64,000 bases of DNA from Psammoneis japonica (lineage: Eukaryota), in NCBI GenBank assembly GCA_008632985.1, contig QPGO01000023.1:341266-405265 (forward strand). Reading direction: 5' to 3'. The position numbers and the translations under genes are program-made. Of this stretch, positions 90 through 58,373 are shown piece after piece (the stretch's first letter is position 1; each line of letters opens with the position of its first letter). The notes below the pieces were generated by a model, which saw only the letters and a list, made by a program, of their open reading frames with translations, ran no database searches and had not been told where the DNA came from.

Positions 90-3000
90 TTTTCCTTTAG
101 AAATGTGGACAAAGATTAAAGCAAAGAAAGTTGAGAAAAAAAAACATTTAATCAATAGAGAGTCCGTCACTTTCGCAAATACCGTGCTGTGATGCACTCA
201 CTGAGAATGTGACAATGAAGAAACACATTTCGGGTCCAGATAATCTTTTCATTTGTTTTCATTATGAATCGGTTTTTGGTTTGACAACAGCAGGTCCAAT
301 GGCATCAACACAAAATGAATAATGCTCATTTTCGGCGGCGACGGCCATTGGATGCCAAGCGATTGTTGAAACATCCGCGACTTTCGCAGAGAAGACAGTG
401 CCGTGGATCCGAACAATCCACAAGCACCCGCTCAACAAGCGGCACCACCTGCTCAACCTGGAGCACAAGCACCTCAAGTGCCAGTTCCACCAGCACAAGA
501 GCTGCACAATAAGCGCAGCCATCAGCAATCCCAGGTCAAGGAGGCGAGGGAGCAGGAGCACCGCCACCGGTCTGTCCTGTGCCACCGCCTCCGAATCAAC
601 TGGCGCAACAACCTGGAGGAGGTCAACCAGCAGCACAAGTGCTGCCCATTCAACCACCTCCACCAAATCCCACCACGTGTCAAGAATGGATGCTGTGGAA
701 CAGCAAACAAAGACCCGCACAATGGCGATTGCACCGAAGCCGGTCTGGACTTTGCTGCAGCCATCGCAGGAGCCTTGAGATGCACCCCTCAACCACTTGC
801 GGCACAAGTCACAGCCACTTCACACTTCAGGACATGACATGCCAATGGCACAAGTGAAACTTGTGACCAATGCCACTGACCGGATGATCCAGGAGTGATC
901 AGCGTGTTCCACCAAATTGCTGCCTGCCCGCAAACCATCGTTGGAAACGCACCACCCTGGGACAGAAATGCTTGCACCATCCGTGGTGACATCACACAAG
1001 GACAGTGTCATGTCGTGCCTTGGGAGGTTGCCAATCATCACATTGTTGCGGCAGCTGGAACCTGGGTCCCCATGGATGCAGAGATGGAAAATCACCCAGC
1101 GCAAAACCCTGAAGGCCCAATTGGCTGCATGCTGCCCAACAATGCCCGGAGCAGCAGAGGTGCAAACATGCGCCACTGCTTTGCTCCCTTTCAACTGCGT
1201 GAGTTTGCTGCTCCCAGTCACCTTGCCACCCAAAGATGTCTTCTGGCATGCACACGGCACTGCCCAGGTGAACAATCAGGTGCAGCAGCTCCGCCCCTTG
1301 CCAGACTGCCTTGAGGTGGCATGCATGAGGCACGGTGCTCAACAAGCTTCAGCGGCAGCTCAGCCATTGCCCCAACTGCTGCAATCACCCAACAAAGCAC
1401 TCCGCTGATTCTTCAACCACATGGCAGACATGGATCTCCTGGGCCATGCCAGGGAAGCCAACCCAACCTTGCCGCAGATCCTTCCGGTCGTTGGGGCCCT
1501 CGACAACCTTGCTGCAGAACAACATCAAACTTGACTGGATGCGCAGGCAAGGGCCCTGGCTGCTGCTGGGGAAAAGATGCCCACACAAACCTTTGGCATG
1601 TGCGGGGTCCTTAAGCTCATGCGACTGACCCAACTGCTGCACAAAGCACAACTCCTGCCATTTGTGGGTCAACCTTGCCGCTGCGCCCAAAATCACGTGT
1701 GTCAAGGTCATGCAGAGCGCATTCGACACCTTAAAGAGTGCACTGGGGACACACTTCCTGACATGTGCCATGGTGCCACTCGTGTCAAAACTCATGAACC
1801 TTGCACTCTTTTGCTGGTTTGTTTTTAGAATGGCTTCAATCCGTGATGCAGGTGTTCTTTTTTCAATGGTGGCACCTTTCACTCACTTTGGATTGGTTGG
1901 GCACCACATGGAGACTGTTTTTGGAACCAGATTTGGAGCCATTTTGGTTTTGGAGCCAACCTTGCTGTCAGAGTCTTGATGTTTTTTGTGTTGTGGACGT
2001 CTTCAAGAACCTCTGAATGACTCAAAACTCAATCAGCTCATCAAAGGCACGTTCCAGCAGTTCAATGTTTTGGACAGTCGACTGATGCACCATCCTTGCG
2101 GTGCAAGTGACAGCTGACAGCTCATGGCTCAGTTTCCCGCTAGATTCAACTTGCAGTTGATTGGAGGATCACATGGATGTCCTCATTGACCTCTTGGGTC
2201 TGGCAGAGGCTTTCTTGCTGTTGAGCTGCTCTGGTTTCTTCAGATCATCTCGAAAAAGACAACTCTGATTCTGAAGTGCATTTCCTTGGAAGACATGAGC
2301 CAAGAGACGCTTGAAGCACTTTTCAACAGTTCCTTCTTGCTCTTTGGACTCAAGGCTCGTTGATTTGGTCTCAAAAAGAAACTCTCCAACAGTCTCTCCT
2401 TGCACAGTGGGGATGCATTTCTTGGACCTGATTGACTGTGACCTGAAATTCCATCCAACCATGACTTGGTGCAGACATTTCAACAATGCTGTGTGCTTGC
2501 AGAGTCCTTGATCCTGAGTGCTTGAAGTGGATCACATCAGAATGAATCCTCTTGTCTTGTGGATGAAAAACAGGGTTCCATCTTGAGGCACTGCTCAGAT
2601 TGAGCTGCTTCCACTCGGAAATTGATTCCAGCAGAACCAGTGCATTTCACACCTGCTCATGGAAGAATTTACAAAGGCACATTAGTTCAAATTTTCATTT
2701 TCCATGTTTTTGCCTTCTGTGGTGTGCATGCACAATGCACCATGCTCAAAGAACAAGTGCAAACGAAAGCGGAATAAAGTGCAAAAAGTGGAAATTGTGA
2801 GATTAAATTTTGCTCTGTGAATTTTGGTTTCTCCGAATGAGTTCTCAATGGCCCAAAGCTTCTGCACTGCTTCTGCACGCAAGATGTCAACATCGTCAAT
2901 TGATTGCATTTGCAATTTTTGACTTCTGATCAACTCTGTGTGATCGTTCTGTCCTTTGCACACATCCACAACTGTGGTGCAATTGACACACAAATGACAT

Positions 3001-4040
3001 GTAATTGCAGATGTGCGTGCAAACAGCTGCATGCTGCAAAGAGGTGGTCCAAAAAAAGTTGGCTCTGTTTTGAAATGCCAGATGCCACGAACAACGTGTG
3101 CCCACCACATTCTCACAAGACATTCATTTGTTAAAGAGTGTGAGACCAACAATGCTTGTGTCTTGCACATTTTGTGGCTCTGACTGGGGTCAAAGTCTAG
3201 CCAAAACTTCCAAAAAATTTGAGTCGAGTGGGTCACACGGGATTCAAGACACACGCGACTTGCAGTGCGATGAGGTGAAATTGACCCATTCTTGATGCCG
3301 AGATCAGATGACAACATCATCACAAAACCAATTTCATTGCAACACTCTGATTTTTAATTTGTCTTTGACCTCATGACATCTGCATTTGACCTTTTTCATG
3401 CCACAAACGGGCGAAACAATCTGTGAACACTCATTTCCAAGACAAACTTTTCTGTTTTCAGATTTGACATGTTTGTGCCTTTGCGATCAATCTAGAGTGT
3501 GCACAAGCCAGGGAGGAGCTCTGTCCACCACCATTTGTCATTCTACAGAATGACAGCATCAGAACATTTTGTCAACGTTGTTTGACGCTTTTTTCTTGAA
3601 CCACGCACCAACTTTTTTCTTCGTTTTCACTCCCGCCCCCGCCTGACTCTCTCTCCCACCCAAGAGTGCTTGGCTGGGTGCATTGCAGTTGCTTTGTCAG
3701 AGGCTTCAAATGTTTGTCTGGTCAATGCCATTGACAAAATTGGTTTGATGATGTGACGACCATGTTGGATTTGTTGGTGTGTGCTCAAGCCAGGAAAAAC
3801 AGCGCGAGAGTTGGCTGCGGCGGCAAGAAAGTTGAGTGAGACAACAAGTGGTGAGCCTCGGATGCATCGATGACACCATTTTGATTTTCAATTTACTTGC
3901 CTTTTTACAAACTCAGACTTGGACTCTGTGGGTGCCGAAAATCCAGCAAATGGTGAGTTGACGCATCGTCTGCGTGCAACATGGCATCACGAATGAGCGA
4001 AATGGTGTGTTTCAATGTTTCTCACCAAGACGTGCATCTC
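90..4040. mobile_element. Degenerate TpA-depleted repeat/TE-derived block, family unidentified
   Basis: Very few TA dinucleotides and an excess of TG/CA. ORFs in all frames are Cys/His-rich and Tyr-poor. A frameshifted Pro/Gln/Ala-rich ORF relic lies at about 400-1650 (+). Boundaries are approximate. Confidence 0.6.
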
Positions 4041-4371
4041 CAATCGGATGATTACAACAGCGTGTCGATGAGGGTCCAATGGAGCTTCTGTTGCAATGGT
4101 CCAAAAAACGACGAATTTTTGTACACCTTATCTGCCGCGTCAATGTCATCGTCGGCTGCGGCGGTTTTTTGTCAAGTTCTCCGTGTTGTCACCGCGGTGA
4201 TGGTCTGTACGCTCATCAGGAGCGATGCGGCACCTGCTCAACTCCCATCAGCAACCTTACCGATAGCTACTGTGGAGACTAGGGCCCTACAGTATTCTTT
4301 CTGGGCTTCTTCCCTCGGCATTCGATCTCTTTTTCTATCCGTTCTCTCCATTGAACCCCTTTGTCAGCGAC

Positions 4372-8678: not shown

Positions 8679-9614
8679 CTAATTCTCGAAAACATTCTTG
8701 ACTTTTTGTAGCGGCGCATCGTCAAGCTTACTATCTCGCATGGCCTTGTACTGCTTGCACAAGCCCTTGTGCGATTTCCAATCCGCCAATTGACACTCGC
8801 GGCTACAGTATTTCGTGGACTTGCACCCACGGCACACTTTCAAATTCTCCAGCGCACCACAATACTCGCAAATAGGCTTGGCCCGGAACATGACCTTGGC
8901 AAGCATACGAAAGTACTTGGTGTGATCCTTGACGAACTGAATCTGCTGGTCATTGAGATTCTTGTCCCAGTCGACCTTCCAATCGTCCATGCGTTTGAGA
9001 GCATTGGCCAAATCGACCGGCTTGTGGCGCGGAAGGAGGACGTTGTCGAGTTCGCTCCTCCAGTCGGAAAATAAATGATCCATGGCCGTGGCAAAGACCT
9101 CTCCAAGTTCGGATACTTCACAGAGAACTTCCAACGTGAACACTTGCTGTTTCTCCCACTCCACAAGAATTTGATCCGCAATTGCATCTTCTTGCTCGTT
9201 GGGAAGAGGCGGACGACCGCCCCACCACGGATCGGTGACTTTACAGTCGAAACAGGGACGAAGCTCGTAGATGGGCGCTCCCGGACTATAGTGGTTGATA
9301 AAGAAACACTTTTCAGCCAAGAGACGTTTTCTTTCTTCGCCTACGACGAGATGGAGCCAGAAGAGAAGACTGTTGTAGCCGCGGATGGAATGGCGGTCGC
9401 CAACGTCGTCAATCGTAGCCAAGTGATTGATGGTACGGGCCACCGCCTCTGCCTTGTCCGAGGGAACGTCGGCCACATAATACTCGGGACGACCATTCCC
9501 ATGATTGTAACTGTATGTAAATCCTACGCCTCCTTTTTCTCCGACAGTCAGAATCTGAATGCCTTTGTTCCTACGGCTCTTGGAAAACTTCATGGCATCC
9601 GCGAGAGCCGACAT
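8679..9614 (-). CDS. MYND zinc-finger domain protein
   Basis: C-terminal CEYCG...CRGCKSTKYCSRECQLADWKSHKGLC is a zf-MYND; start codon uncertain. Confidence 0.8.
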   Translation of the reverse strand: MSALADAMKFSKSRRNKGIQILTVGEKGGVGFTYSYNHGNGRPEYYVADVPSDKAEAVARTINHLATIDDVGDRHSIRGYNSLLFWLHLVVGEERKRLLAEKCFFINHYSPGAPIYELRPCFDCKVTDPWWGGRPPLPNEQEDAIADQILVEWEKQQVFTLEVLCEVSELGEVFATAMDHLFSDWRSELDNVLLPRHKPVDLANALKRMDDWKVDWDKNLNDQQIQFVKDHTKYFRMLAKVMFRAKPICEYCGALENLKVCRGCKSTKYCSRECQLADWKSHKGLCKQYKAMRDSKLDDAPLQKVKNVFEN

Positions 9615-9789
9615 TGTCTGGGCCTTTGAGCACACTTTGTTTCCAACGTGGACGGACGCACCTCAGCGAGGTGATGCTTCGCAGGATAAGAGCTGCTGCA
9701 GCCCGAGACGCCGCCGCTCGAGCTCTTCATCGTCGGGCTAATATTTTTGAAAAAAAAAAGACGAAACTCCATCGGGTCTGTCATGTGTG

Positions 9790-12700
9790 CGGGAACATGC
9801 ACACCCCTTCGTCACAGATCTAGATCAACTCCAGGCATCCCCAGTGGGAAGATGGTGCTGGTCTCTGTCCCTTTGCAGACAGCACACCAAGCCAAGATGC
9901 CAGTGATGGCAACCTCCCAAGATGACCAATGCCCTGTTGCAACTGTGGTTGTGGTGCCAGACTCCACTCAAACCGCACATGCACATGATGGCACCACAAG
10001 TGCACATGAAAACACAATCCCTTCACGTGGTGGCTGTGCTGGCTGCGCAAAGCCCACTTGTTTGCAGTTGTGAGCAAAGTGTTCATTTGCTTGGGCATGT
10101 GATCTCTTTTGCAAACAATCTTTCTTCCCTCTGAGGTGCCGCAATGAGAGATGATGATGATGATGAGAGATGAGAGGCTGGTGCATGCAATGAGGCAGAG
10201 GGCTGCCTTGATGCACTGCAGTGCTTCAACAGCTCTTCCTGTGCAATCTTGCTTCAGTCTTTTTCTCTCTTCTGGTGGTGTGTTGAGCAAAAGGATGAAC
10301 AACTGTTTTGCAGCATGTGGGCCATGGGCAGGGGGCTTGTGCCACACAACATGGCTGCAGGAACTTTGTGGCATTTCAAGTTGGCATGCAGACAACACCT
10401 TGGCAATGAGGTGCTGTGGGCTGCTTGGTCTGCATGCTTGTCATGTGAACCAACTTGCAAAGAGCAATCTTGCCTGCTGCTGCCATGGGCTGAACAAGGG
10501 TGTGCTCTTGGAAGCTGTGCTGCTGCTGTGATGCACAGAGATGGTGAAGTCAAAGCAAAAGCATTTTTTGCTTTCTGGTGTGCGAGCAGCATCTTCTTTA
10601 AAAGGGGCTCTTTTCCAGCTGCTGCATGGGAAACAAATTGCTGCTGAGTCATGGATGTGACTTTCACCAACACATGCTCATGAGCCAGCACAATGAGTTG
10701 AGTGATGCTGCAGGTTGTTGTTGCAGCCAGGTCTGGTGGGTGGCGCACTCAACTGAAGAATGAGAACCTGCTCCTGCACCCACATTCAGTGCAATGACAT
10801 GAATGATGCCTTCTTGGTTGGTCGTTCAAGGAAGAAAGCAAGACCAAACATGTTCAAAAACTTGGAGAGCCACCACCTGTTTTGATGCACATCATCTTCT
10901 TGTTCTTGAGCTCAATGAAGCTCCAAAACAGAGTCTCCAGTCACCACCTGCTCTGATCCTTCCAACAACCTGAAGCACAATCTTGAGTTTCAGGCTTTGC
11001 ACACACCCGCCATTCCATTTTGTGTGTGGAAGAGCAGCTGCCAAAGCTGCTTCTTGCACACAAAAGCAGCAGCACTCAGTGACAACATGACCCACACCAC
11101 ATCATGGCATTTTGTCTCAGTGAACTTGACAAGAAAAATTTGGATTGACTTGTGGCAACAAGAGCCACAATCTCACAGGAGCAACTTGATGAATGAAACA
11201 TGTTTGGCAGCATTTTGTGGAGTTTGGAGAGGTGCGCCACTTTGCAGGAGCTTCAAACAAGGCCAGATGAAGAAGGAAGCTCTCCAAGTGGTGGGGCATC
11301 TTGATGGGGCAAATGTGGGTGCAATTTGTGACAAGAAGAGCTGCAATCTCAATGGAGTGTCTCAAGCAAAACTTGCTCAGTGGCATTTCAGGGGGCATCC
11401 CACCATGAAAAAACTGGTGCATCAGAAGGTGGCAAAAACACAAGCACCAAGCTTGAGCTTTTTGGCAATGATGAGGATGATGCAGAAGAGGAAAAGGAAA
11501 AGACCATGAAGAAGAAGACAGATCAAGTGAAGATGAGACAGCAGCACAAAACACCACAGCAGTCTGGCAAAGGAGTTGCACCTCTTGGATGTGATGCATC
11601 CAACTGCAACAATTCAAAACAGCACACAGCAGAGCAGCAAACCAGCAATCATTGACAGTTGTGTGCACCATGCATTGCATTGTTTTAGTTGAGTGCAAAC
11701 AACAAGACAAAATGTTGTGATGCAAATGATTTTAATTTGCAGGTTTGTGGGAACAGAGCACTGGCACTCTCACAGGAAAATGGGTGGCTGTTTCACAGCA
11801 AACCTTGCTTTCTTCATTGGAGTGGGGTCAGACCCCTGGCACAAAAATGTTTGTCTGTCACAGTCAACAAATGATGTTCACCATGTGCAAAACTTGCCAT
11901 CTGTCACAGCACAAAAACATTGCCCGTGAAAAGGTTAAAAATTGTTGTGAGACAGGCAGCCTTGATCACTGCAACACACACTCTGATGTGCAGCCCTCCA
12001 TCACTTTGTTCATCCTTTGCCCCTTCCTGGGGAAACAACCCAAAGGATGGGACAGATGGTGACAAAAAGGGCTGTCTGAACCTCAAATGACAGCTGCACA
12101 GTGAATTCCACACAGAAAAAGCACATGAGGAAGGAGAGTTGCACTCGAAGGGGGAGGGGGCATGCCCGGGCTGTTGTGGGCACCCAAAGAAAGACCAGAG
12201 CAACCAACACAGACCATTTTCAAAAAGACAGTTTGTGATCGTTGCACATCTTGATTTTTTAAAATGTTTGTTTGCCACATGGCAGCAGCTGAGACCACAC
12301 AAAAATGACTGCTGGTGAGCACAGCACATGCCTTTTTGCCAACAACAAGCAGCGTGTTGAGTGAAGAAGGCCAGGCCTGCATGACACCACAATTGCATCA
12401 AATGTTGCCCAAAACATTCCTTGTGTGCACTGTGCACCTCCTTTTGCAACACAAAAATTGACAACTGACCATGACAAGAAGCTGACAGGTGCCAAACCTT
12501 GCCCCCACATGACAAGCACAGCTTTTTTGTTGGCCACAAGCTCTCTCTCTCACACATCCGGCTGGGGAGAAACTTGGGAGAACAAACCATGTGACAGCAC
12601 AGCTTGCTCCAGGATGATGAGAGTTGCTCATTTTTAAGAACATCATTTTGTGGCATGCAAAGGACTGGCTGCCAGCTTGAGGCAAACAAAGGTGTTTTTT

Positions 12701-14200
12701 TTTTGTGACAGCATGAAGAAAAAGCTGTTGGCGCAAGAACGTTGTCCAGCTTCTGAGAAAGGCAAGACACTTGTTGACAAGAGAGAGAGCAAGCAGCTGC
12801 TTCAGTGACTTTTAACTTTTGAGGAGCACAGCCAGCAGCAGAAGAGGCACACAGGTGGTTAAAAGGACAGCGAGGAGAGAGCCCAGCAGCTGCAAAGGGA
12901 GAAAGAGGAGCTGCAGACTGTGGCGAGTGTCAGCAAGAAGGGAGCTCCTGAAAGCAGCTTTGAAAACACACCAGCACAGAGGCAAAAAAGTTTTCAGCTG
13001 CAAGAGCAAGCAAAACAACAAGGTGGGCTCCAAGACAAAGGTGCAGAGGGTGGCTGTGGACACATTGTCATGAGAAATGATCCAGATCAGTCTGCAAAAA
13101 AACACTTTTTTGGGAAGAAGATGCACAAGCAGAAAACAAACTGGCATTTCCAGTGCTGCAAGTGTGGGCACTCTGAGCCAAAGGTGGGCAGTGGAGAACC
13201 AAGAGGTTGCAAAGTTGGCTGAGCAAGAAGGAGAAAAAAACAGAAAAGGTTGTCCACAGTCTTGCACAGATCCACATTGCCCCTGGTCCAAGGAGCTGAA
13301 GACATGATGAAAGGAGCAAGACTGGTGGCAGAGTGGTGGTCTGGTCATTGAGAGGACCTCCAAGGAGGTGCAGTCAGACTGCCTGGCATGTTGTTGGGAT
13401 CTTCTTCCTGCATGTGTGGCAGGGTGTGCTTTGCTTGACACCTGGGTGCCTTGGCTGCTCAACTGTGGCTGCATTTTGGGCACCATTGAAAAACAGTGGT
13501 TTTGCAAACCAGCCAGCTGCACACCAAATGCACGCATGATGCACACAAAGCTGTGAGCATGACAGACCAAGGTCAGCCAGAGGGGGCAAGGGCATGTGGG
13601 GAAGATCACAAGTCAGCTTTTGTGGTGGCACCAAACACAGCAAGGTTTTGGTTGGCCTTGAAGCACCCAACTGCAATCTTTTTGTCAAAAAAAAGAAATG
13701 CCAAAAATGCAGCAAAATCATGACTGTCAAAACAAAAACTCTGTGCTCCGCTGATGCTCAGACTTGCTTGTCATTGACACGATCTCTGGACTGGCAGCAG
13801 ATGGTGCTCAGGACAGGCCTTCCTTCCAGCAGCTCAGCATGCTGCCACTTGTTGTTCCACAGAAACAACAAAAAAGAGCTTCACTTCTGAGGAGCTGTGT
13901 TGTCAAGTGTGGCACCCAATTTTGGTTGGCTTCAAGCTGGAAAGCTGCATTGTGGTGTGCGATGGAGTGAACCTGCCCCTACACTGACAAATCTCCCCCC
14001 TCTGGATTTGACAGATGAAGGCAGCAGTGAAGAGCATCCAAGGGGACAGCTTCCACCTGCAATGGCTCTTGTCAAAAGACAATGGCTTCAGCCACCGGAT
14101 CAATCGGCGGACGAGTTTTGGGTCACAGCAAGAGTCATTTTGGTTGCTCTGAGAGAGTTGCTTCTGTGGCGATTCAGACCACAACGATTCTCCTGGTCAA
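9790..14200. mobile_element. Old, heavily mutated repeat/TE block depleted of both TpA and CpG
   Basis: About 9 TA in about 4.2 kb by manual count, very few CG, TG/CA-rich, no intact recognisable protein. Confidence 0.65.
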
Positions 14201-14423
14201 CAATGTTGCAAGAGCTCGAGCGAACTAACTGCTGGCATGAGACGAGGCAAACTGAAACTAGCTACTACACTGGAGGTATACGTATTCCAGCTCTAACAGC
14301 GGTGGCCTCTAAGATTATTAGTTTCACACTGCAGCAGTTAAGGCCTCAAAACGCTTCCAAAATCACTGTCGTTGTGTCATAAGAGTACGAAAAGTATGGG
14401 CACCAACTCCACGTCGCGAACAT

Positions 14424-15188
14424 TCAGACGCCGTCTGTAGACATGAATGTTCCTATTCCTTCCCAAAAGATTGGTGACGAAGGATTAGCCAGCCATTCAG
14501 ATGTTGGTGTGCGATCAATAGTACGAGAAGCATCGTGACTTGTTCTCCCAGTGCCATTCCGCCATTCCGACCAAGCTTCGAAAGACTTCCACAGAGTACA
14601 GGTTGAATAATTGAATGGATCATCACATGAATGGTCTAGAATTTGATGCTGCTTTCGAAGAAGAGAAAATCCAAGGAACCCTGGTTGCCATGGAAGCTTC
14701 GTTTCTCGCTCAGCCCATCGTTTCTCGAAAAGTTTCTCACATCCAGGCTTGACTGAAAAGCGATTCATCGCCACAAAGCAGGTATCAATGGGACTACCGA
14801 AACTGTCGTTTGGAGTCAAAAGAAGCGTAGCTTCCCACACCCGATTCTCGTTAGGGGTGTTAACGAGATCCCTTTCACCAGGTAATGGGGTGATGGTTAA
14901 CGTGGCATAGTTCCCTTCTTCCGCCCCGTGCACAATTTTTCTTCCGTACAATTCGATCCCATCTCTTCTTTTCAGCAGTGTCCCAAAACGCACGTTGCTG
15001 TCAGCTTTAGGATTACAATGCAGCCCTTCAAACTCAGTTTTGTCCTTTTGGTCAACACGATAAAGCTTGAGGTCGACAAGACGCGAAGCGGGGAATAATG
15101 TTGGTCTTGTTTGATGTGTCGTTGATGCAATTGCCGCTACGGACCACACGCTGGCCGTCACAATCAAGATTTTCAGTGATAAAATCAT
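14424..15188 (-). CDS. Antibiotic biosynthesis monooxygenase (ABM/IsdG-like) domain protein with N-terminal signal peptide
   Basis: FVAMNRFSVKPGCEKLFEKRWAERETKL..PGFLGFSLLRK...TLWKSFEAWSEW is an ABM fold; hydrophobic N-terminus. Confidence 0.75.
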   Translation of the reverse strand: MILSLKILIVTASVWSVAAIASTTHQTRPTLFPASRLVDLKLYRVDQKDKTEFEGLHCNPKADSNVRFGTLLKRRDGIELYGRKIVHGAEEGNYATLTITPLPGERDLVNTPNENRVWEATLLLTPNDSFGSPIDTCFVAMNRFSVKPGCEKLFEKRWAERETKLPWQPGFLGFSLLRKQHQILDHSCDDPFNYSTCTLWKSFEAWSEWRNGTGRTSHDASRTIDRTPTSEWLANPSSPIFWEGIGTFMSTDGV

Positions 15189-15599: not shown

Positions 15600-17200
15600 T
15601 GTCACGTGCCCGGTCTCTCGACGATGGTGCTCACAGCTTCTTGAAAATCCATGGCTTTTTGCACTACGACCTGTGCCCACCTTACCAACCCACTTGTGAA
15701 GCTCCCTGAGGGCCGAAGTGCAAAAACCCATCATGTCTGATGTCAGAAAATCGTTCGCATCAAAACACATGCATCGGCTGTTCTTGGATTCTCGCGTTCA
15801 GAATCAATGGATGCCAGCAGGCCTGTGGGCAGAGTGCTGCAATACAAAATTCAACATCAATGATGAGAGAGTCGAAACCATGGTTGGACAGTTGAAGAAG
15901 CCGTGTGGCAGCATCAACGGGGTTTCGAGTTTGACGGAAGAGAACAACATTGTTGATGACGGGGTGAATTTGTGCGAAACGGAACACCAACATGGCAGTC
16001 AAGCCCAACCCCTTTTCCCTCTTTGCAAATTACTTGAAGCTGCTCAAGGACGATGACAAAGCCCATGCATCCCGGTTCTGCACCTGCCTGCAAGACTGTT
16101 TTTTGGGATTGCAAACTCCCGAACCTCCGTTTGGACACGAGAATCTCAGTCACTTTGTCGGATCCAAGTCTTTGGCAAAAACCGTTGACACGTGCCATCA
16201 TCTTGCAAACCCAAGTCGTTCTTTGCCGCAGAGCATCAGCAAGGGCATCGTGGGTTCACTTTCAATGGGTGCAATTTAGGATGAGACGATTTTCAGGATT
16301 GCAGCTGCCTGCCAATCAACTGGCATCATGCTTTTGAATCACCAACAACGATGGCTCGTTGTTGTGCTGCTAGAGGCTTGTCTGCACTGCCATCTGCACG
16401 CTTCAAGAACGAATTGGCTGCTTGTGCCTTCTCTGCCAATGGATGTGTGTTTGGGTTGAGCAGTTGGCAGATGGGAACGGGCACAAGTTCCGTCTCTGAG
16501 TGCACAACCTAAACAACACTGCCAAACTGATCAAAGGAGTGCAAGCACTGCTGTCATAGCTCTAGAACAGTTTTTTAAATTCAAGAACGAGTGGGTCTAC
16601 CTGCCCCCGTGGCATCGGTAGAAGAGAGCAAAGCCAAGGGTGGCATCAAGCAACGACGGCATTTGAGGCACCAGCAACTGTCGACAATCATTTCACAATT
16701 CAAAGATGTGACAGTGCTTCATTGCACACTCTTCCTGTGGAGATACTTGCCTCTTGTGAAGATTTCTCGAAAGGAACTACGCTACTTCAGCATCACGCAC
16801 ATCGCATGGGAGCACCGGTGCGCGTGATCTTGACTCCAAAATGTCACTCTGAATTCTGAATTGGCGTGGGAAGGTGCAGAACATCTTTGGGCTTGTGCAA
16901 AAGGTGAGTGTCAAAAACTTTTCCTGTCACAGAAATAGGAAAAGAGAATTTCAAGAAATCTGTTAGGCACTGCTTGTTGGATGAGGTGTAGAGAAGCGCA
17001 CACGTAAGTTTGCAAAGAGAGCACCACGGCACATCCAGGCTTGCCATGCAACTGACAATGGACATGTTGAGGACACCAAGAGGGTCCATGAATTTGGACC
17101 CACTCCCAACTGAGAGGTCTGTAAGATTTGGACCCGTTGCACTCGACAAGACGCACCGGTGTGCTGTTGCTTTTGGTTTAAAGTTTGCATCAACAGCGTC
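15600..17200. mobile_element. Partially TpA-depleted intergenic block, probable repeat relic
   Basis: About 8 TA in 15601-16550 versus about 28 per kb in the adjacent ABM gene; CpG largely retained; broken ORFs. Confidence 0.4.
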
Positions 17201-34617: not shown

Positions 34618-35134
34618 GGTCTCGTGATTGCAGCACCGCAACGCACGCTTCTTCACAGCATCATGGTCTCGCTCGTCGCGGCTAGTCGGTCGGAGGTAGG
34701 GCCCTAGGTGAACATTCCGTTCTTCATGTTGGAATATTTCAAATGTAGTTGCCGTTGAGCCGACAAACAACTTGAGAGGGACCCATAACCTCTTTTATAA
34801 TTAAATACAGATTTTATAACGATACATATTTGACTAGTATAATTATGCATATTATTTATATTTCTTAAGTAATTTATGTCAAGATTTTGTCCAAGGCCTG
34901 TCCTGTCGGTCTTTCTCCGGTAATTCTCCGAGACCGCACGTTGAAGCTTGACGAAGCATCACGTTTCAGGTTGTGTGGACTGTGTGAAGGCAGATGGCAG
35001 ATTGAAGATGGCAGAGTGAGCCTTTTTGTGGTTTTCAGCGGCGGGCTGAGCTAGGTTGCCATTTGCAATTGGCCATTTCATCCACGACATTTCTCAACAA
35101 AAAACGTCCCCAAGGTGCGCTTTCTAATTTCAAA

Positions 35135-49189: not shown

Positions 49190-49492
49190 TGCACATGCTG
49201 TTCGCAGTGTGTTGGGTGCTGTTGCTCAATTTCTGTGTTTTTTTCTGTGCCTGACATGACTGCAAATGTTTCAAACAAGGTTTTGCGTGAGGTGTGTCAT
49301 GCAGGCGCGCCCATGACTTGCTGGCAACACACTTGCCAAAGATGGCCCAAGCTCTTTCACACTGGCAGTGTTTTCTGCATCAAAAACAAAGCAAGCACAG
49401 CTTTCCTTGCTTGTCAGGATCATTTGCAACAATCAAGAAATTGACCCGATGTCTGCTTCAATCCATCCAAAAGTTTCAACCACAATGGCCCA
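49190..49492. mobile_element. Left part of an older TpA-depleted repeat interrupted by the copia insertion
   Basis: TA-free. Removing the element and one TSD copy joins ...FQPQWP to TCNAICDQ... in frame. Confidence 0.5.
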
Positions 49493-49737
49493 TGACAGGA
49501 TTTGAACAAGATTGTGGTTTGTCGCGCACAATTGTGTGTGCTCTCAGTTCCGCGCGCGTCGCGCGATGTGGCTTGCTTTCGAGCCACAGAGCTCACAAGA
49601 ATGATGACAGCAGTGCCGACATCACGACACCAGTCTTTCGGCTCCTGTGACGGTCTCTGCATGGAGACTCATCTGCCATTTAGACAGCAGTGAGGAGTCA
49701 TTGTTTTCTTCCACCCAGTCATCTTCATTTTCTGTCA
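49493..49737 (+). repeat. 5' LTR
   Basis: 245 bp, TG...CA with 6-bp inverted termini; 223/245 identical to 56102-56346 by manual alignment. Confidence 0.95.
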
Positions 49738-50549
49738 GATTGACAGTCTTGCTCTTCATTGTCCATTGAGCGTTCATCATCGTCATCGAGAAATTTTCGA
49801 CGACGCGCACCATTGGCAGTGGAAGCACACATCTACCTTCTTCACTGCTGAGCACTGGATTAAATCTGCATGTTTGGATTCATCCGACACCTCCCATCGT
49901 TGGAAGTGTTTGTTCAACGGACATTTGTTTGGCCAGGAACTCCTGAATTCTCAGACATCCGAGATTCTGGATTCCTTGCAGCGGATCCTGCCAACACATC
50001 CGCGCGCGTTCACGCGCACATGATGCAAATCCCTGACTCTGGCTCTGCTCCACGCACGCCAAGTCTACCGCCTCACATCTGCGCCGGATTGCTGGTCTTC
50101 TGCAGTCCTGCAGGGTCCACGAGGACAACTGTGAGAGGAAGCAATTCGTGATCACAGCCTGCGTTGGTGCGAGGGTGCATTTCCCACATTTGTTCATCCC
50201 TCCACAGCACCAAATTTGGCCAGTCTGATCGGGTTGTCCAACCGACATAAAATGAGATCGGCTCAGAGGTCTTGTCCACCTCTGGCTGGCTTGTCAGCAG
50301 GGGTTTTTAACCCGTTGCTCTGCTCTCAAGCAACCCAAAGTGTCGCCAGCTGCGGGTTCAGACGTGCCGGCACAACTCTGTGGACCGGATGGGAAGCTCA
50401 GCACTCAACTGCGAACAGGGTGTCACAGCCCGGTGCCTTCTGACTCTTGAGATAGTCCCAGACATCAAGTCAAGATTCAAGTCAAGTTTCAAGTCATTTC
50501 AAGCTCACCCTCCGACTCCAGCTGGTTCCGACATCCACCCAGTTGCAAC

Positions 50550-53500
50550 ATGGTTCTCACCAGGCAACAACAAATCAATGGCCTCGAGCACATCCTGGGC
50601 ACTGTTCTGAATCAAGCTGCCGACAGTCCATTGCGCTCCGCTCTCAACATTGATGGAACTGACTCGCATCAGGACCTTTTCACTTTTGCTCCGATGCAAT
50701 TGGATGCCCTTGTGTGCAACGACAGAACCAATCAAATGCCTTTGCCACGCTGCGTTGATCAGCCTGCACACAGCAAAAGCGCACGGCAGCACGGATGTTG
50801 GCAATGACCCTCAATTGTTCACACAAGAGGAGTTCACCAACTGTCGTCTTGGTCCTGAGCATGTGGCGTCCCTCTCCATGGGTGCAGCACCATCTGCTCC
50901 CACTCCTGGCTCATTGCCACCCAAACCATGTGATCCCGTGCATGACTTTAAACAAGGCATCAAACGTGACCCACTTGCCTTCATGCTTCTCAAGTCCAAC
51001 AAACAGTGGCACATGTGGCACACCTCCATCATCGCACAGGCCCACTCACAAGACATCGCACGCATTCTTGACCCGACGTACAAGCCCTCTGCAGCTGAGG
51101 ACAAGGCCCTGTTTGCTGAACAACAGAAGCACATGTTCGCTGCATTCAAACGGATTTTGCAGAATGACAAAGGCAAGGCTCTTGTTCGTCAACATGTCGG
51201 CTCCTCTGATGCTCAAGCAGTGTGTCATGACCTTTCCAAGCATGCCCTTGCTTCCACTCGCGCATCCCTGGAGTCCTCGACCCTTCTCACGTACCTCGCC
51301 ACTGCTCGCCTTGGTGATGGCACCTGGAAAGTTTCCACTCATGCCTTCATGCTCCACTGGCAGGACCAGCTCCGCAAGTGTGAAGCTCTCATTCCGGGTG
51401 CGGACCATTTTTCTGCTGGGCAGAAATGTGTCATGCTTGAGAATGCCGCACATCCCATCGAGGAACTCTGTTTGGTGAAGAATCAGGCCGATCAGTTCCG
51501 CGTGCAGAATGGAAAGGGACTCTCTTACAAAGAGCACTGTGGACTCCTGCTTTCTGCTGCAGCACAGTGCGACAGCACGTTCGCCCCCAAGATGGCTCCT
51601 TGCGCTCCGCGCCGTGCCATCTGTGAGCATGACCTGGTCCCTGACGACCCTGACGATGATGCATTCTTCGACATCGACAGTGATGTTGACGTCATGCAAG
51701 CTTGTGCTGCACAGACCCGCGGCAACTCCCTCACCAGGGAACAATGGTGTCGCATTCCGACGGACCACCAGTGCATTTGGGACACCTCACCCCAGTCCAC
51801 TGGGGCCATCATTCTTGGCTTGCGCACCGCCCACACGGGCAACTGCCATGACTCGATGGCAGTCAACCTGCATGACCTCCGCATTGGCAGTGATGGCGAT
51901 GTCAACTTGTCCGCCAACACTCATGATCTTGCATCAGCCTTGGCACAATCCGATGCTGCAGCCAGTGCCAACCCCATTCTGGCCCATCTCACCAGGCACA
52001 AGCCTCTGCCACCCGGCGACTTGCAACGTCTCCTGGCACCTGAGCGGCCTCCTTCCGCCCGTTCTGGCGAAAAACCACCCGGCTCTGCACCTTCGGTCCG
52101 CTCCGACATGAAGCCCCATGACACTGACATTGAGATCAACGGCCACAAATGCCGTTGCGTCAACAACCACAATGTCATCTGCTCTGCCTCGACCCACAAG
52201 TCAACTCGCAAAGGCGCTCTCGTGGATCGTGGTGCAAACGGTGGCATTGCTGGTGATGGTGTTTGTGTCATTGCCCGCACTGGTTGCCAGGTTGACGTCC
52301 AAGGCATCAACAATCATCAACCAGTCGACATCCCCATTGTCACTGCCGGTGGTGTCATCCACACGCAACGCGGCCCTGCCATTGCCATCCTTCACCAGCA
52401 CGCCTGCACTGGAAAGGGGAAGATGACACACTCTTGCAGCCAACTCGAGTGGTGCAAACACGATGTCAATGATCGGTCCATCAAGGTCCCCAACGGTCTG
52501 CAGTGCATCACCACCATTGATGGATGCGTCATTCCCATTGACACCAAAGCTGGCCTCCCATGCATCGCCATGCGCCCGCACACCGACACCGAATGGGACA
52601 CTCTGCCGCATGTCATTCTCACTGGTGATGACACATGGGATCCATCTGTCCTTGACCACCAGTTCACGGACAATGAGACGTGGCATGACGCCGTGTCTGA
52701 CCTCCAAGACAACCCGACTGCCAACCTCTTCGATGAGTTCGGCAACTGTCATCACCGCCATGTCATCAACAACGCCATGCTCACCGACTCCGTCCTTGAT
52801 GATCATCTGCTCCCGACGTCTGATTTCTTCTACAAATGCCATGAGCATGAAGTCAATCCCAAGGATCCTGACTTTGAGTCCCTCCGCCCCTGCTTTGGCT
52901 TTCTCCCAAAGGACACTGTCCGCCGCACTTTCAATTGCACGATGCAGTGCGCCCGCATGCCAGCCAGCACACACCTGAAAAAGGCACACAAATTGCCCAA
53001 CCCAGCTCTCAATGTCCACCAACACAATGAACCCGTTGCCACCGACACGGTCCACTCCGACACCCCTGCCATTGACTCTGGCTGCACCAGCGCTCAGCTC
53101 TTTGTCGGCATGGAATCTCTCATCACTGATGTGTGTGGCACCAAAACTGACAAAGAATTTGTCAACACCCTCGAAGACAACATTCGCAATTGCGGTGCCC
53201 CGTCCAAGCTCATCAGCGACCGTGCCCAGGTTGAGATCAGCAACAAGGTTCTTGGCATCCTTCGTGCCCTCTTCATCTCTAGTTGGCAAAGCAAGCCCCA
53301 TCACCAGCATCAGAATTTTGCTGAATGCCGCTGCCAAACTGTGAAGACCATGGCCAACACCATCATGGATCGCTTCGGGTCCCCGGCTTGCACCTGGCTG
53401 CTTGCCCTGATGCACATGTGTTTTGTGCTCAACCACACGGCGTCCGCCAAGCTCCACTGGCGCACCCCCACCGAGGTGCTGTCCGGCTCTGCTCCTGACA

Positions 53501-56114
53501 TCAGCCCGCTCCTCCACTTTCAATGGTGGGAACCCGTGTGCTGCCACCTGGATGATTCCGACTGGCCGTCAGAATCCTGTGAATTACGTGGTTGCTTCGC
53601 TGGCATCGCCGAACACGTTGGTCACCAAATGACGTTTAAGATTCTTTCTGACGACACTCAGAAGATTCTCCACTGTTCCAACGTGCACTCCGCCCGTGAT
53701 CCGTCTGCTCCAAACCTGCGTCTTGATCCTCCTGATGAGGAATCTGCTGACTCTGTCAATGAATCCCGCCACAACTCCAAGAATTCGCCAGATTCACCAG
53801 ATTGGGAGGCGATCAGGATGCCAAAATGCCGGTCTTTGACCCCAAGGACATCGTGGGACGCACATTCCTCATGAAGCCACAAGAGGATGGACAACGCCAC
53901 AGAGCCCGCATTGTCAAAGCTGTTGAGGACCACGACTGAACAATTGGAGGCAATCCTGAACTGGTCAAGTTCATTTGCTCCGTCAACAATGACGAACACG
54001 AGGAAGTCCCAGCCTGCAATGACATCATGCACCACATTGAGCAAGAAGACGAGGACACAACTCTCTGGAAGTTCCGACGCATCACATCCCACGAAGGACC
54101 ATTGCAACCCCATGATCCCTCTTGGAAAGGCTCAAGCTACAACATCATGCTTGAATGGGAGAATGGGGAGATCACGTCCGAACCCCTTGCCATCATTGCC
54201 AAGGACGACCCTGTCACCTGCACCATCTACACGCATGAGCATGGCCTTCTGGAAACCGAAGGATGGAGACGTTTTTGCAAGACAGCACTTCGTCAGAAGA
54301 AGTTGTTCCGCATGGCCAACCAAGCCAAGTTGCTCTCCTTTCGTGCCGCGCCATGATGCAAGTGCGGGCACGAAGCACCACGGAACTGCAAGCATGCCAT
54401 GGCCCTTGATGAGCGCAATGACAACCGCAAGTGGGGAGACGCCACGGACCTCAAGATGACCCAACTTGATGAGCACGAGGTCTTCCATGACTGCGGACAC
54501 CACAAGGACTCCAGTGCTCCATCAGGACACAAGAAGATCCGGGTGCATCTCGTCTGCGACGTCAAACATGACGGACGGCACAAAGCAAGGCTTGTCGCCG
54601 ATGGACACCTCACAGACGTGCCCATCGACAGTGTCTGCTCTGGAGTGGTGTCCCTCCGTGGCCTGCGAATGATGATCTTCCTGGCCGAACTCAATGAACT
54701 AGAGACCTGGGCCACTGACATTGGGAATGCCTGCCTTGAAGCTGCAACCAAGGAGAAACTGCACATCGCAGCAGGCCCCAAGTTTGGCAACCTGGAAGGA
54801 CGCATCCTCGTCATCCACAAGGCCTTGTGCGGACTCCGCAGCTCCGGTCTCAGATGGCATGAACGCTTTGCCGATTGCTTGCGTGCCGAAGGCTTCTTCC
54901 CATGCAAGGCCGAACCCGACATCTGGCTGCGCAGGAATGGTGACCACTGCGAATGCGTGGCAGTGTGTGTGGACGACCCAGCCTTTGCCATGAAGGACCC
55001 CCAGGTTTTTGCAGACACCCTCGTGGAGAAGTGCAAGTTCAAGCTCAAGGGCACTGGACCATTGGAGTTCCATCTTGGCTGCGACTTCACCCGTGACCCA
55101 GACGGCACCCTGTGCCTTGCTCCCCGCAAGCACATTGAGCGCATGGTTGACAACTGCGCACGCCTCTTTGGGGAGAAGCCCCGCACTGATGTGCTTTCAC
55201 CCCTTGACAAGGGTGACCACCCTGAACTCGACACCTCAGAATTGCTCAAACCAGATGGCATCCACCAACTCCAATCCTTGATTGGATCCCTGCAATGGGC
55301 CGCATCTCCAGGCCGCATTGACATCACTGCGGCTGTCATGTCCCTGTCCAGCTTCCGTGCAGCGCCCCGTCAAGGCCACCCAGACCGCGCCAAATGCATC
55401 TGCGGATTCCTCTCCAAGATGCATCATGGTGCCCTTCGAGTGCGCACCGAGGAGCCTGACCATTCAGACCTTCCCAAGCCCGTGTGCGATTGGGCTCAAT
55501 CTGTGTGTGGGGAGGTAGAAGAGCTTCTCCCACAAGATGCACCCGAGCCGCTCGGCAAGTTCGTCACCACCATGCACTGCGTCAATGCGAACTTGTTCCA
55601 TTGCATGCTCACTGGACGCTCTGTCACTGGCATCCTCCATTTCCTCAACAAGTTTCCGGCTGATTGGTTCTCTAAGAAACAAGCAACAGTCAAGACTGCT
55701 GCGCATGGATCCGATTTTGTTGCCGCAAGGACATGTGTCGAGCAGATCATTGATCTGCACATCACTTTGCATCACCTTGGCGTTCCCATTCGTGAAACAT
55801 GTCACATGTTTGGGGACAACAAGTCGGTTGTGGACAGTGCCACCATCCCGCACTCCAAGTTACACAAGCGACACACCACCCTCTCATTCCATCATGTGTG
55901 CGAGGCGATTGCCTCGGGATTCCTCAAGTTTCACTTTGTCGAAGGTTCCCGCAACCCGGCTGACATCCTCAGCAAGCATTGGGGTTGCTCCCAAATCTGG
56001 AACCTCCTTCGTCCTCCAATGTTTTGGAGCTTCAACCCCGAGGCTTTCAACCAATCCAACTTCGAATCTGTTGCTGTTGACCCCTCAAGCAAACTGGGGA
56101 GTGACAGGACTTGA
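50550..56114 (+). pseudogene. copia gag-pol pseudogene (gag, protease, integrase, RT, RNase H)
   Basis: gag MVLTRQQ...FKQGIKRD; protease ALVDRGANGGIAG; integrase VATDTVHSD, LISDRAQVE, QNFAE; RT HKARLVADG, TDIGNAC, KALCGL, CVDD; RNase H FGDNKSVV, NPADILSK. Several frameshifts and a TGA at 54354. Confidence 0.93.
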
Positions 56115-56346
56115 ACAAGATTTTGGCTCATCACACACAATTGTGTGTGCTCTTAGTTCCGCGTGCGTCAAGCGATGCAGTTTGCTTTCAAGCCACAGAG
56201 CTCACAAGAATGACAACAGCAGTGCCGACATCACGACACCAGTCTTTCGGCTCCTGCAACGGTCTCTGCATGGAGACTCATCTGCCATTTAGACAGCAGC
56301 AAGGAGTCATTGTTTTCTTTCACCCAGTCATCTTCATTTTCTGTCA
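56102..56346 (+). repeat. 3' LTR
   Basis: 245 bp, preceded by the PPT and followed by TSD GCCCA. Confidence 0.95.
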
Positions 56347-57976: not shown

Positions 57977-58373
57977 GCCCTTTGTGACATTTAAAGGCTG
58001 TGACACGTCGCCGTGACACATTGGCTCTTGTCAGCAGCTGTGTGTTGCACTCCTCCCCATGTGTCACGCGTCCATGCGGCTCTTTACTAACGTGCACTGA
58101 CACTGCACGGTTTTGGCGGAACAGTGTGGGTGCGTGCGAAGGAACACACAGAACTGCACAGAGTTTTGCGCGTTCGACAGTGATCAACGTTGCTGCAGAC
58201 AACTCCCACACAGGTTTCGAACCCCTGGCCTCCTGCCCAATGGTCATACGATGAACCACTCCGCCATGAATTCACAGTGCAGCACGCATGCAGACAAACG
58301 CCCTTTGTGACATTTAAAGGCTGCAACACGTCGCCGTGACACATTGACTCTCATCAGCAGCTGTGTGTTGCAC
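57977..58373. repeat. Direct repeat pair (about 74 bp; about 57977-58050 and 58300-58373)
   Basis: ccctttgtgacatttaaaggctg(tg/ca)acacgtcgccgtgacacattg(g/a)ctct(tg/ca)tcagcagctgtgtgttgcac. Confidence 0.85.
58203..58272 (-). mobile_element. tRNA-derived (Pol III A/B box) sequence; SINE head or tRNA pseudogene
   Basis: The minus strand reads TGGCGGAGTGGT (A box) ... GGGGTTCGAAACC (B box) at tRNA-like spacing; no convincing acceptor or anticodon stems. Confidence 0.6.

Follow-up and report, generated by a model that had tools for sequence, protein, structure and literature searches.

Sequence context of surviving TpA sites in TA-poor DNA of Psammoneis japonica

The closest described parallel to the DNA analysed here is the TpA-restricted hypermutation of integrated giant-virus and virophage DNA in Bigelowiella natans (Mettrop et al., bioRxiv 10.64898/2026.01.13.699255), an ongoing and episodic process with a rate raised about 1000-fold in mutation-accumulation lines. 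The main text of that preprint describes no context beyond TpA, and the words 'context', 'TTAA', 'trinucleotide', 'tetranucleotide' and 'diatom' do not occur in it. A repeat-directed A:T-to-G:C mutator would be the mirror image of fungal repeat-induced point mutation (RIP), and the one 2026 preprint, on an unrelated alga, is where such a mutator has so far been reported. In ascomycete fungi RIP changes C:G into T:A, predominantly at CpA sites, and so gives rise to TpA (PMC2621366, PMC7296669). For engineered adenine deaminases a short motif has been described, the TadA-8e variant ABE10 preferring A in YAC, where a pyrimidine precedes the A and a C follows it (PMC13109818). Full-text searching of the literature brought up no work on the erasure of TpA from diatom transposons and nothing relevant on TpA, A-tracts and adenine deaminases together. 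Here we analysed a window of 64,000 nt of Psammoneis japonica (assembly GCA_008632985.1, contig QPGO01000023.1, positions 341,266-405,265, forward strand) for the sequence context in which TpA survives.

TA-poor blocks and their dinucleotide balance

Four TA-poor blocks, 23,750 bp together, were delimited in the window with an HMM. Besides the focal block at 9790..14200, these are a second block at 351..4050 (17 TA, observed/expected (o/e) 0.07; CG o/e 0.45; five TTAA, four of them extended by a further T or A), a small block at 15701..16500 (4 TA, o/e 0.08; CG o/e 0.65) and a large block from 49201 to the window end at 64000 (41 TA, o/e 0.05; CG o/e 0.50; nine TTAA, eight of them extended). 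The blocks contain one Copia element and a second retroelement remnant, and the flanking genes have normal TA.

The focal block is a gene-free island of 4411 bp which, by dinucleotide counts, is stripped of both TA (n = 10, o/e 0.03) and CG (n = 31, o/e 0.12), with TG and CA at o/e 1.88 and 1.80. Its balance per kb against window control was -38 for TA, -47 for CG and +84 for TG+CA, positions 17001-49000 serving as control DNA for the dinucleotide ratios. ApA is not depleted (AA o/e 1.19 in the block vs 1.13 in the control), which bears out the view of an earlier sequence-only reading that the target is not generic WA. At the left border TA is normal up to about 9742 and CG up to about 9810; at the right margin (14096..14225) CpG density is normal again and TA still absent. 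The neighbouring genes, both on the minus strand, are unmutated and encode a zf-MYND protein (8679..9635) and a protein with an ABM domain (14424..15188). UV photoproducts at TpA were rejected by inference, the borders being sharp where genes begin.

No Pfam domain reached the curated cut-off in any of the 21 scanned ORFs of the focal block (DUF3492 was sub-threshold, E = 0.008); across the TA-poor blocks, the scan covered the longer 108 of the 187 ORFs with 70 aa or more. A paralogue of the block was found in the window neither by blastn self-comparison nor with the sequence reduced to a purine/pyrimidine alphabet, in which transitions vanish. We read the block as old DNA free of genes, probably derived from a transposon. 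A single public run of those listed (X1, DNA, contigs) contains it, and no RNA run among them does; X1 is probably the source sample and thus not independent support. Its contigs showed no listed difference from the block at any of the seven TTAA sites described below, and among the 15 differences examined none was TA vs TG/CA and five were CG vs TG/CA.

The direction of change was read from a young Copia-type LTR retrotransposon on the plus strand (49492..56347), recognised by its RVT_2 domain, its LTR pair (49492-49738 and 56101-56347) and homologs that are 49-67% identical in protein, some of them named from Phaeodactylum and Nitzschia. The polyprotein is encoded at 50641-53771 and 53772-56111, with a frame change near 53770. 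Its ORF holds 2.6 TA per kb compared with 46.7 in 23 homolog ORFs, with TG up by 19 and CA by 26. At least 60% of 40 full-length homologs share Tyr in 54 columns, of which 30 have become Cys and 13 His in this element, the remainder being four Phe, one Trp, one Leu and five retained Tyr; changes from Tyr to Ser, Asn or Asp (0/54), from Lys to Glu (0/63) and from Asn to Asp (0/31) were absent. The two LTRs are 91% identical, rising to 99.2% in the purine/pyrimidine alphabet, and 20 of their 22 base differences are transitions. At five sites TG in one LTR stands against CA in the other, and at one site TA stands against CA; the process therefore acted on DNA after integration. The TA-free zone also extends beyond the element (49168-49491). 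Pairwise comparison further identified a 76-bp repeat in two copies (57975-58050 and 58298-58373, within 57975..58373), which differ by TG versus CA at two sites and share a surviving TTTAAA.

The loss of CpG is a separate and slower process than the conversion of TpA. The sequence-only reading had taken the near-absence of CpG in the focal block for the end state of the same process, a view that the Copia element contradicts, having lost its TA and kept CG unchanged (49.7 vs 47.1 per kb in homologs over 49492-56347). Conversely, homologous elements of other organisms (L002, L006, L017, L028 and L038) have CG o/e of 0.05-0.16 with TA o/e of 0.65-0.85. To judge from these sequences, CpG loss probably reflects decay of 5-methylcytosine and would mark age rather than the TpA mutator.

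Context of the surviving TpA sites

Expected TA counts were derived from two proxies for the ancestor, the flanking unmutated DNA and the homologs. The homolog baseline comprised 56 unmutated Copia loci with 12,162 TA, of which 4.3% lie in TTAA (0 to 14% per locus). The metagenome homologs (57 loci, 246 kb) served as baseline only, and none had any 1-kb window with TA o/e below 0.25.

TTAA accounts for 21 of the 72 surviving TA in the four blocks, compared with 67 of 1593 in the remaining window DNA (p = 1.2e-12) and with the 4.3% share in the homologous loci (p = 1.8e-12). The focal block alone has 7/10 (p = 2.9e-8 against the homolog share), and the bias is present in three separate blocks. 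When TA was modelled as remade by transitions from the blocks' own TG/CA, giving a TTAA share of 7.25%, the excess persisted (p = 2.4e-8), also after removal of the two sites shared between copies (20/70, p = 7.5e-8). The seven TTAA sites that the sequence-only reading had noticed in the focal block are thus confirmed, among ten TA rather than about nine, and the sites that it had pointed to elsewhere (1612, 1732, 3132, 57992 and 58315) are all TTAA. TTAA was strongly enriched against every proxy for its ancestral frequency.

The seven sites of the focal block all lie in longer runs: 10598..10601 (cTTTAAAa), 11732..11735 (TTTAAt), 11935..11938 (gTTAAAAA), 12259..12262 (TTTTTTAAAA), 12634..12637 (TTTTTAAg), 12812..12815 (TTTTAAc) and 12859..12862 (gTTAAAA). 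The other three survivors are a TTAG after a T-run (11685..11688, gTTTTAg), a CTAC (13979..13982) and, at the left block edge, a CTAG (9820..9823, its TA at 9821) absent from the earlier list.

Survival over the tetranucleotide classes was 0.55 for TTAA, 0.16 for CTAA/TTAG, 0.15 for CTAG, 0.10 for GTAA/TTAC, 0.06 for CTAC/GTAG and at most 0.03 for the remaining classes, including ATAA/TTAT (0.02) and ATAC/GTAT (0.01). Not one ATAT was seen where about 64 were expected, and survival in the alternating RTAY contexts was about 1%. The earlier proposal that TpA inside A/T tracts is refractory therefore holds where a T-run meets an A-run and fails for ATAT, ATAA/TTAT and ATAC/GTAT, which are the most efficiently erased.

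Within TTAA, survival depends on run length. Bare TTAA, with no further T or A, was seen twice against 18.7 expected (survival about 0.11), compared with 19 against 19.3 for TTTAA/TTAAA, a survival of about 1.0. Arranged by the lengths of the T-run and the A-run, survival was 0.04 at (1,1), 0.11 at (2,2), 0.8 at (2,3), 1.17 at (2,4+) and 1.2 at (3,3). Counted as pentamers, TTTAA/TTAAA occur 24 times against 24.3 expected, and their conversion products show no excess. The extended form makes up 19 of the 21 surviving TTAA, compared with 31/61 in control DNA (p = 0.0015) and 240/522 in the homologous loci (p = 5.5e-5). The predominance of TTAA among the survivors follows from its place at the core of the T-run/A-run junction. 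Neither half-site alone protects, since the As in XTAA and in TTAY are convertible, as the LTR and repeat pairs show. Mixed junctions of a pyrimidine run with a purine run that are not pure T and A, such as CTAG, are intermediate (20 seen vs 106 expected, 0.19) and differ from other contexts (33 vs 811, 0.04; p = 4e-8).

This run-length rule is a new observation. It emerged post hoc, and its replication is confined to the two halves of one window, which agree on extended TTAA (11/12 and 8/9). In the focal block seven extended TTAA stand against 3.6 expected, and the ancestor of that block may have been run-rich; leaving it out, the TnAm class numbers 12 against 15.7 expected.

Compared with a uniform rate, a flank model with four parameters (A 2.9 > G 1.8 > C 1.1 > T 0.4) described the data better (chi2(3) = 85-95). 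For the tetranucleotides, an additive model with one flank per strand had only a small advantage over a multiplicative model (nll 18.9 vs 22.2), and it predicts too little survival at (2,3) and (2,4+). Further comparisons addressed whether each strand reads base -2 or base +1 of the A. Split by preceding base, Tyr to Cys:His was 5:1 after A, 13:2 after C, 11:8 after G and 1:2 after T (Fisher p = 0.13). Sites in which T and A fall on either side of a codon boundary mostly changed silently from T to C, and codon usage and past selection there are inseparable from mechanism. The trinucleotide balance against 16 CpG-intact homolog ORFs left several classes unclosed, with decisive z-scores below 2, and CpG decay and composition are confounders for any excess among tetranucleotide products.

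A candidate mechanism and its rivals

We consider it probable that a context-dependent TpA mutator acted at the DNA level and that the survivors are its slow sites. Two separate transition processes would have acted on the focal block, a repeat-directed TpA hypermutation that turns TpA in DNA into TpG or CpA (A:T to G:C) and ordinary CpG decay. Reactivity would be maximal in the alternating purine-pyrimidine context R-T-A-Y, above all in ATAT, lower where pyrimidines precede the T and purines follow the A (Y-T-A-R), and near zero at TnAm with n and m of at least 2 and n+m of at least 5, that is, at TTTAA/TTAAA. The agent may be an adenine-deaminase-like enzyme that needs to unstack or flip the A of the TpA step, which a purine stack 3' of the A on both strands would resist. 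We put forward this combination of enzyme and stacking only tentatively. More speculative still, the mutator would be a naturally occurring adenine deaminase active on duplex DNA, its access set by DNA shape and stacking, not by a short motif; it would hit nearly every alternating RTAY step and leave T-run/A-run junctions untouched. A TadA/ADAT-like DNA adenine deaminase would be expected to show as a gene with the HxE-PCxxC motif and as activity on DNA. Outside the TA-poor blocks, a scan of 32 ORFs of the window found no deaminase domain.

Among the alternatives, the one that fares best supposes that TnAm junctions were masked by a bound protein, by modification of adenine or thymine or by a nucleosome-free position, with no preference of the mutator itself. 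The near-complete survival of TnAm, which is not merely graded, and a joint protection by both flanks that exceeds the prediction of the additive model would suit such masking. Protection is nevertheless graded over all ten tetranucleotide classes and over the mixed pyrimidine/purine runs, as suits an intrinsic rate better, and runs that exclude nucleosomes are generally longer than 5-8 bp; we therefore regard masking as unlikely. Slightly less likely again is that the T of TpA is the modified base, for instance through oxidation or hypermodification followed by pairing with G, the context rule then being that of a T-directed enzyme. T:A to C:G at TpA is symmetric and all counts presented here fit this equally well, and what speaks against it is that the only published parallel, the Bigelowiella preprint, proposes adenine deamination, likewise unproven.

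Error-prone repair synthesis of the polymerase eta type, mutating A at WA motifs, is very improbable. A to G is a common outcome of this polymerase, which counts in its favour, and TA holds a WA hotspot on both strands (PMC7884765). It would however be expected to target AA together with TA and to leave a sizeable share of transversions, and neither was found: ApA is intact, 43 Tyr changed to Cys or His vs four to Phe, the LTR differences are nearly all transitions, and Lys to Glu and Asn to Asp are absent from the Copia protein.

RNA editing of an ADAR-like kind, acting on transposon transcripts that are afterwards reverse transcribed and integrated, can be set aside almost entirely. ADAR does favour a 5' U, with 5'-UAN triplets (PMC11994451) and UAG (PMC2532740) as described targets. 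Editing before integration would place the same change in both LTRs, which are identical at insertion, whereas those of the Copia element are discordant at their TG/CA sites; moreover, the TA-free zone spills outside that element and, at the focal block, past the CpG-poor core, and TAG-type contexts are relatively spared here although ADAR prefers UAG. Chance, ancestral composition or regeneration of TA after erasure, for which the mere ten TA of the focal block and its possibly run-rich ancestor might be cited, hardly deserves consideration in view of the recurrence of the TTAA bias in separate blocks and of its p values against window DNA, homologous loci and TA remade from TG/CA.

Under the preferred reading of a DNA-level mutator, the quantitative rule, with RTAY surviving at about 1%, YTAR at intermediate levels and TnAm at about 100%, offers the most direct route to the enzyme. 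It predicts the oligonucleotides that are to be edited or spared by a candidate deaminase, sets the process apart from ADAR, polymerase eta and RIP, and allows mutated DNA to be dated and modelled. Should the enzyme work on duplex DNA, it would be relevant to base-editing research, and if a duplex-DNA deaminase is indeed responsible, TTTAA/TTAAA would give transposons an escape route written into their sequence and would also provide a direct biochemical test by which to identify the enzyme.

Comparison with known systems

The change of CG to TG/CA in the focal block would be accounted for by the CpG decay of methylated transposons, which differs from the TpA mutator in its dinucleotide and its slower pace and is not seen in the young Copia element, already without TA. 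RIP resembles the present case in its dense transitions confined to repeats and transposons, in having a dinucleotide as target, and in sharp borders with some spread into the flanks. Its C:G to T:A changes that create TpA are not seen here, where TA o/e is 0.03-0.08 and TG/CA about 1.8.

For TadA/ADAT-type deaminases and the base editors derived from them, A-to-I chemistry would yield A to G as seen here, and the YAC preference of ABE10 is compatible with T-A-Y as the best target. The substrates of these enzymes are single strands or loops, of which they read one or two neighbouring bases, whereas here protection increases as the runs on both sides of the step lengthen.

The Bigelowiella process, as described in the preprint, is the most similar. 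There, as here, changes are almost only A to G or T to C, all at TpA and giving TpG or CpA, a pattern borne out at this locus by the mass balance, by the 43/54 Tyr columns and by the discordant LTRs. Both processes are restricted to foreign or selfish DNA, seen in Bigelowiella as TpA-poor, CpA- and TpG-rich genome clusters and here as a Copia element and a retroelement remnant, alongside a focal block without a recognisable domain. The host there is a chlorarachniophyte and the targets are integrated viruses, compared with a diatom-like genome here, and the depletion reported in the preprint is far milder (Rho TpA 0.45 in the giant-virus region vs 0.03-0.08 in the TA-poor blocks).

TA-poor blocks and the excess of TTAA among surviving TA

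A two-state HMM on TA density called four TA-poor blocks in the window (351-4050, 9751-14200, 15701-16500 and 49201-64000; together 23,750 bp). Their observed/expected ratio (o/e) of TA was 0.03-0.08 compared with 0.60 in control DNA of the window (17001-49000), and TG and CA were both almost double. The focal block (9790-14200) lies between a zf-MYND gene on its left (8679-9635, - strand) and an ABM-domain gene on its right (14424-15188, - strand), in both of which TA and CG density is normal up to the block borders. None of the 21 ORFs scanned in the focal block had a Pfam match that reached the curated cut-off (DUF3492 was a single sub-threshold match, E 0.008), and no paralogue of the block was observed in the window, even when transitions were masked by recoding to a purine/pyrimidine alphabet. 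The analogy of the other TA-poor blocks leads us to infer that it is transposon-derived.

The sequence-only reading had reported that the TA left in this block is biased towards TTAA, and this was borne out. Seven of the 10 TA are TTAA (10599, 11733, 11936, 12260, 12635, 12813 and 12860), the others being TTAG (11686), CTAC (13980) and CTAG (9821), the last absent from that reading's list; the five sites it named elsewhere in the window are likewise all TTAA. Across all TA-poor blocks TTAA accounted for 21 of 72 surviving TA, compared with 67 of 1593 in the remaining window (p=1.2e-12). Ancestral TTAA frequency, named beforehand as the decisive comparison, was proxied by 57 homologous Copia loci from metagenomes. 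TA o/e was at least 0.5 in 55 of them (L020, 0.49; L044, 0.31), with no 1-kb window of TA o/e <0.25 in any of the 57. L044, which has the lowest TA o/e and no clear TTAA bias (4/49), was excluded. In the 56 baseline loci TTAA made up 4.3% of 12,162 TA (range by locus 0-14%), and the excess over this baseline held for all blocks (p=1.8e-12), for the focal block (7/10, p=2.9e-8) and for the Copia element alone (4/23, p=0.016). The TTAA observation is real and highly significant. Regeneration of the surviving TA from the blocks' own TG/CA by transitions predicts 7.25% TTAA and was rejected (p=2.4e-8). Contigs of a public sequencing run (X1), which is probably the source sample, have no difference from the focal block listed at 7/7 TTAA sites.

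Several other features of the window were also recorded. The loss of TAA and TAG leaves all TA-poor blocks with spurious ORFs (200-450 aa), some in other frames and some on the opposite strand. A second retroelement remnant, unrelated to the Copia element, was found at 60993-63866 (+), with a Pfam SH3_retrovirus (integrase C-terminal) domain in ORF 62835-63866 (+) beside a 547-aa ORF (60993-62633, +) without a Pfam match. On the right-hand side of the focal block normal CpG density resumes at 14096, yet the first TA occurs only at 14226; equally, the stretch 49168-49491, which leads up to the Copia 5' LTR at 49492, has 0 TA immediately after very dense TA (48800-49167). These TA-free margins (14096-14225 and 49168-49491) look like mutator spill into the flanks, or older fragments. 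The mutator left untouched a locally TA-rich region at 46501-47500 (44 TA vs 34.5 expected in 47001-47500), which contains an imperfect 135-bp palindrome (46926-47060, 77% self-complementary) between two HSF-type genes. The host genes are long ORFs almost without introns (P-type ATPase, DOMON/Cu-monooxygenase, M28 peptidase, peroxiredoxin and two HSF-type factors). At 35063-38638 (+) an 899-aa ORF that matches AAA_16 and, weakly, NB-ARC precedes an ORF with MalT-like TPR, which is the architecture of a STAND-type ATPase, and adjacent ORFs carrying the halves of a Pyr_redox_2 oxidoreductase (22014-22694 and 22765-23421, within 22014-23421, +) are probably one gene split by a short intron.

Conversion of TA to TG/CA and the loss of CpG

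The mass balance closes in both regions analysed. In the focal block the changes per kb were -38 for TA, -47 for CG and +84 for TG+CA; the Copia polyprotein region has 2.6 TA/kb vs 46.7/kb in 23 homolog ORFs, and gained 19 TG and 26 CA per kb relative to them. The polyprotein was aligned with 40 full-length homologs, and the 54 columns with Tyr conserved in at least 60% now hold 30 Cys, 13 His, 4 Phe, 1 Trp and 1 Leu, with Tyr kept in 5. Together with the absence of K to E (0/63) and N to D (0/31) changes, this outcome shows TA changing to TG/CA by transitions rather than an indiscriminate attack on A.

The window is eukaryotic, and the genome is termed diatom-like because the closest named relatives of this Copia-type element are from Phaeodactylum and Nitzschia. 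The LTRs of the element (49492-49738 and 56101-56347) share 91% identity, rising to 99.2% in the purine/pyrimidine alphabet; among their differences are five sites that are TG in one and CA in the other, one site of TA vs CA and about five sites of CG vs TG/CA. Because many CpG are still common to both LTRs, double hits at one CpG should be rare, and the best reading of the TG/CA pairs is therefore one ancestral TA with a different strand converted in each LTR. Such strand discordance means that the process acted on DNA, once the element had integrated. The two copies of a 76-bp repeat (57975 and 58298) differ as TG vs CA at two further sites and have one surviving TTTAAA in common. The polyprotein also shows a frame change near 53770 and an in-frame TGA near 54354. 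The base before its conserved A-starting codons (50641-56111, +) is C in 63-80%, compared with 32-45% in 33 unmutated homolog ORFs, and amino-acid-changing A to G at these boundaries is rare. Either silent T to C was favoured while the family was active, or the ancestor had more C-ending codons; the boundary counts are mostly silent T to C, which may also reflect codon usage or past selection.

The sequence-only reading had regarded the disappearance of CpG as the final state of the TpA process. This is not supported, as the young Copia element has little TA left and has kept its CpG (49.7 CG/kb in the polyprotein region vs 47.1/kb in the 23 homolog ORFs). CG o/e ranges from 0.13 to 0.65 across the TA-poor blocks at similar TA o/e, and five Copia homologs from other organisms (L002, L006, L017, L028 and L038) have CG o/e of 0.05-0.16 with normal TA o/e (0.65-0.85). 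Among 15 examined differences between the focal block and the X1 contigs, 5 were CG vs TG/CA and 0 were TA vs TG/CA. The evidence points to CpG loss as a clock separate from TA loss. Non-TTAA survivors numbered 35 vs 442 expected in CpG-retaining blocks and 16 vs 456 in CpG-poor blocks; TTAA survivors, at 9 vs 18.7 and 12 vs 19.3, respectively, showed no drop, which is the behaviour that would be expected of a truly refractory class.

Flanking bases and run length at surviving TA

Survival relative to control density was tabulated by strand-symmetric tetranucleotide class. It was 0.55 for TTAA, 0.16 for CTAA/TTAG, 0.15 for CTAG, 0.10 for GTAA/TTAC, 0.06 for CTAC/GTAG, 0.03 for both ATAG/CTAT and GTAC, 0.02 for ATAA/TTAT, 0.01 for ATAC/GTAT and 0 for ATAT. 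All ten classes were fitted by a model that gives each flanking base a single dose (A 2.9, G 1.8, C 1.1, T 0.4; chi2(3)=85 over a uniform rate with the window baseline, 95 with the homolog baseline). The flanking base here is the one 5' of T, which is equivalent to taking the complement of the base on the 3' side of A. Since As in ATAA, GTAA and TTAT/TTAC contexts were converted in the LTR and repeat pairs, neither half-site is sufficient to protect. As a guide to which flank the A of each strand reads, the ratios of Tyr to Cys:His by preceding base were 5:1 (A), 13:2 (C), 11:8 (G) and 1:2 (T), with p=0.13 across the four bases, and noise dominated the trinucleotide balance. An additive model had a small advantage over a multiplicative one (nll 18.9 vs 22.2) but predicts too little survival where both flanks are runs, a shortfall that may point to an effect at the level of the duplex.

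T occupies the second upstream position in 56% of survivors vs 26% in control DNA, and 19 of 21 surviving TTAA are TTTAA or TTAAA, compared with 31/61 in control DNA (p=0.0015) and 240/522 in the homolog loci (p=5.5e-5); the two window halves agree (11/12 and 8/9). With survival tabulated by the length of the T-run (n) and A-run (m), values were 0.04 for (1,1), 0.05 for (1,2), 0.11 for (1,3), 0.33 for (1,4+), 0.11 for (2,2), 0.8 for (2,3), 1.17 for (2,4+) and 1.2 for (3,3). Pooled TnAm junctions (n,m>=2, n+m>=5) were seen 19 times vs 19.3 expected (23.4 with the homolog baseline; 12 vs 15.7 without the focal block). Similarly, the pentamers TTTAA/TTAAA were seen 24 times vs 24.3 expected, with no excess of their conversion products in pentamer counts. 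Junctions of mixed pyrimidine and purine runs survived at 0.19 (20 vs 106 expected) and all other contexts at 0.04 (33 vs 811; p=4e-8 vs mixed-run junctions), with strictly alternating R-T-A-Y at 0.01.

These run-length and mixed-run counts identify the protected feature as the junction, at the TpA step, of a homopyrimidine run with a homopurine run. Protection is strongest where one run is all T and the other all A, and is captured neither by 'A/T-rich' nor by the word TTAA. The core of the earlier interpretation, that TTAA is refractory and hence constrains the enzyme, was therefore right; its wording that TpA inside A/T tracts is refractory applies to TnAm junctions and not as a general A/T-tract rule, as no ATAT survives. 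The new, sharper result is a graded reactivity, RTAY >> YTAR >> TnAm, obtained post hoc and on proxy ancestors.

Candidate mechanism and comparison with known systems

Only transitions occur, the 5' T is strict and both strands are hit, all of which would fit an enzyme that modifies bases, the simplest case being an adenine deaminase. Reactivity drops with a longer purine stack on the 3' side of the target A, on both strands, and peaks in alternating, poorly stacked contexts. This dependence suggests that unstacking or flipping A out of duplex DNA may be rate-limiting. Sensing of run length is not known for TadA-type enzymes. Neither ApA nor the share of transversions agrees with polymerase-eta WA mutagenesis, and ADAR-type editing fails the LTR test. 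The direction of RIP is opposite to the TA to TG/CA change in these blocks.

A full-text literature search returned no account of TpA erasure in diatom transposons. The closest work in print is a preprint on Bigelowiella natans (Mettrop et al., bioRxiv 10.64898/2026.01.13.699255), which describes TpA-only A to G / T to C changes in integrated viral DNA and also proposes, without proof, an adenine deaminase; the words 'context', 'TTAA', 'trinucleotide', 'tetranucleotide' and 'diatom' are absent from that main text. A TadA variant is described as preferring YAC (PMC13109818), a preference that is compatible with T-A-Y as the best target here.
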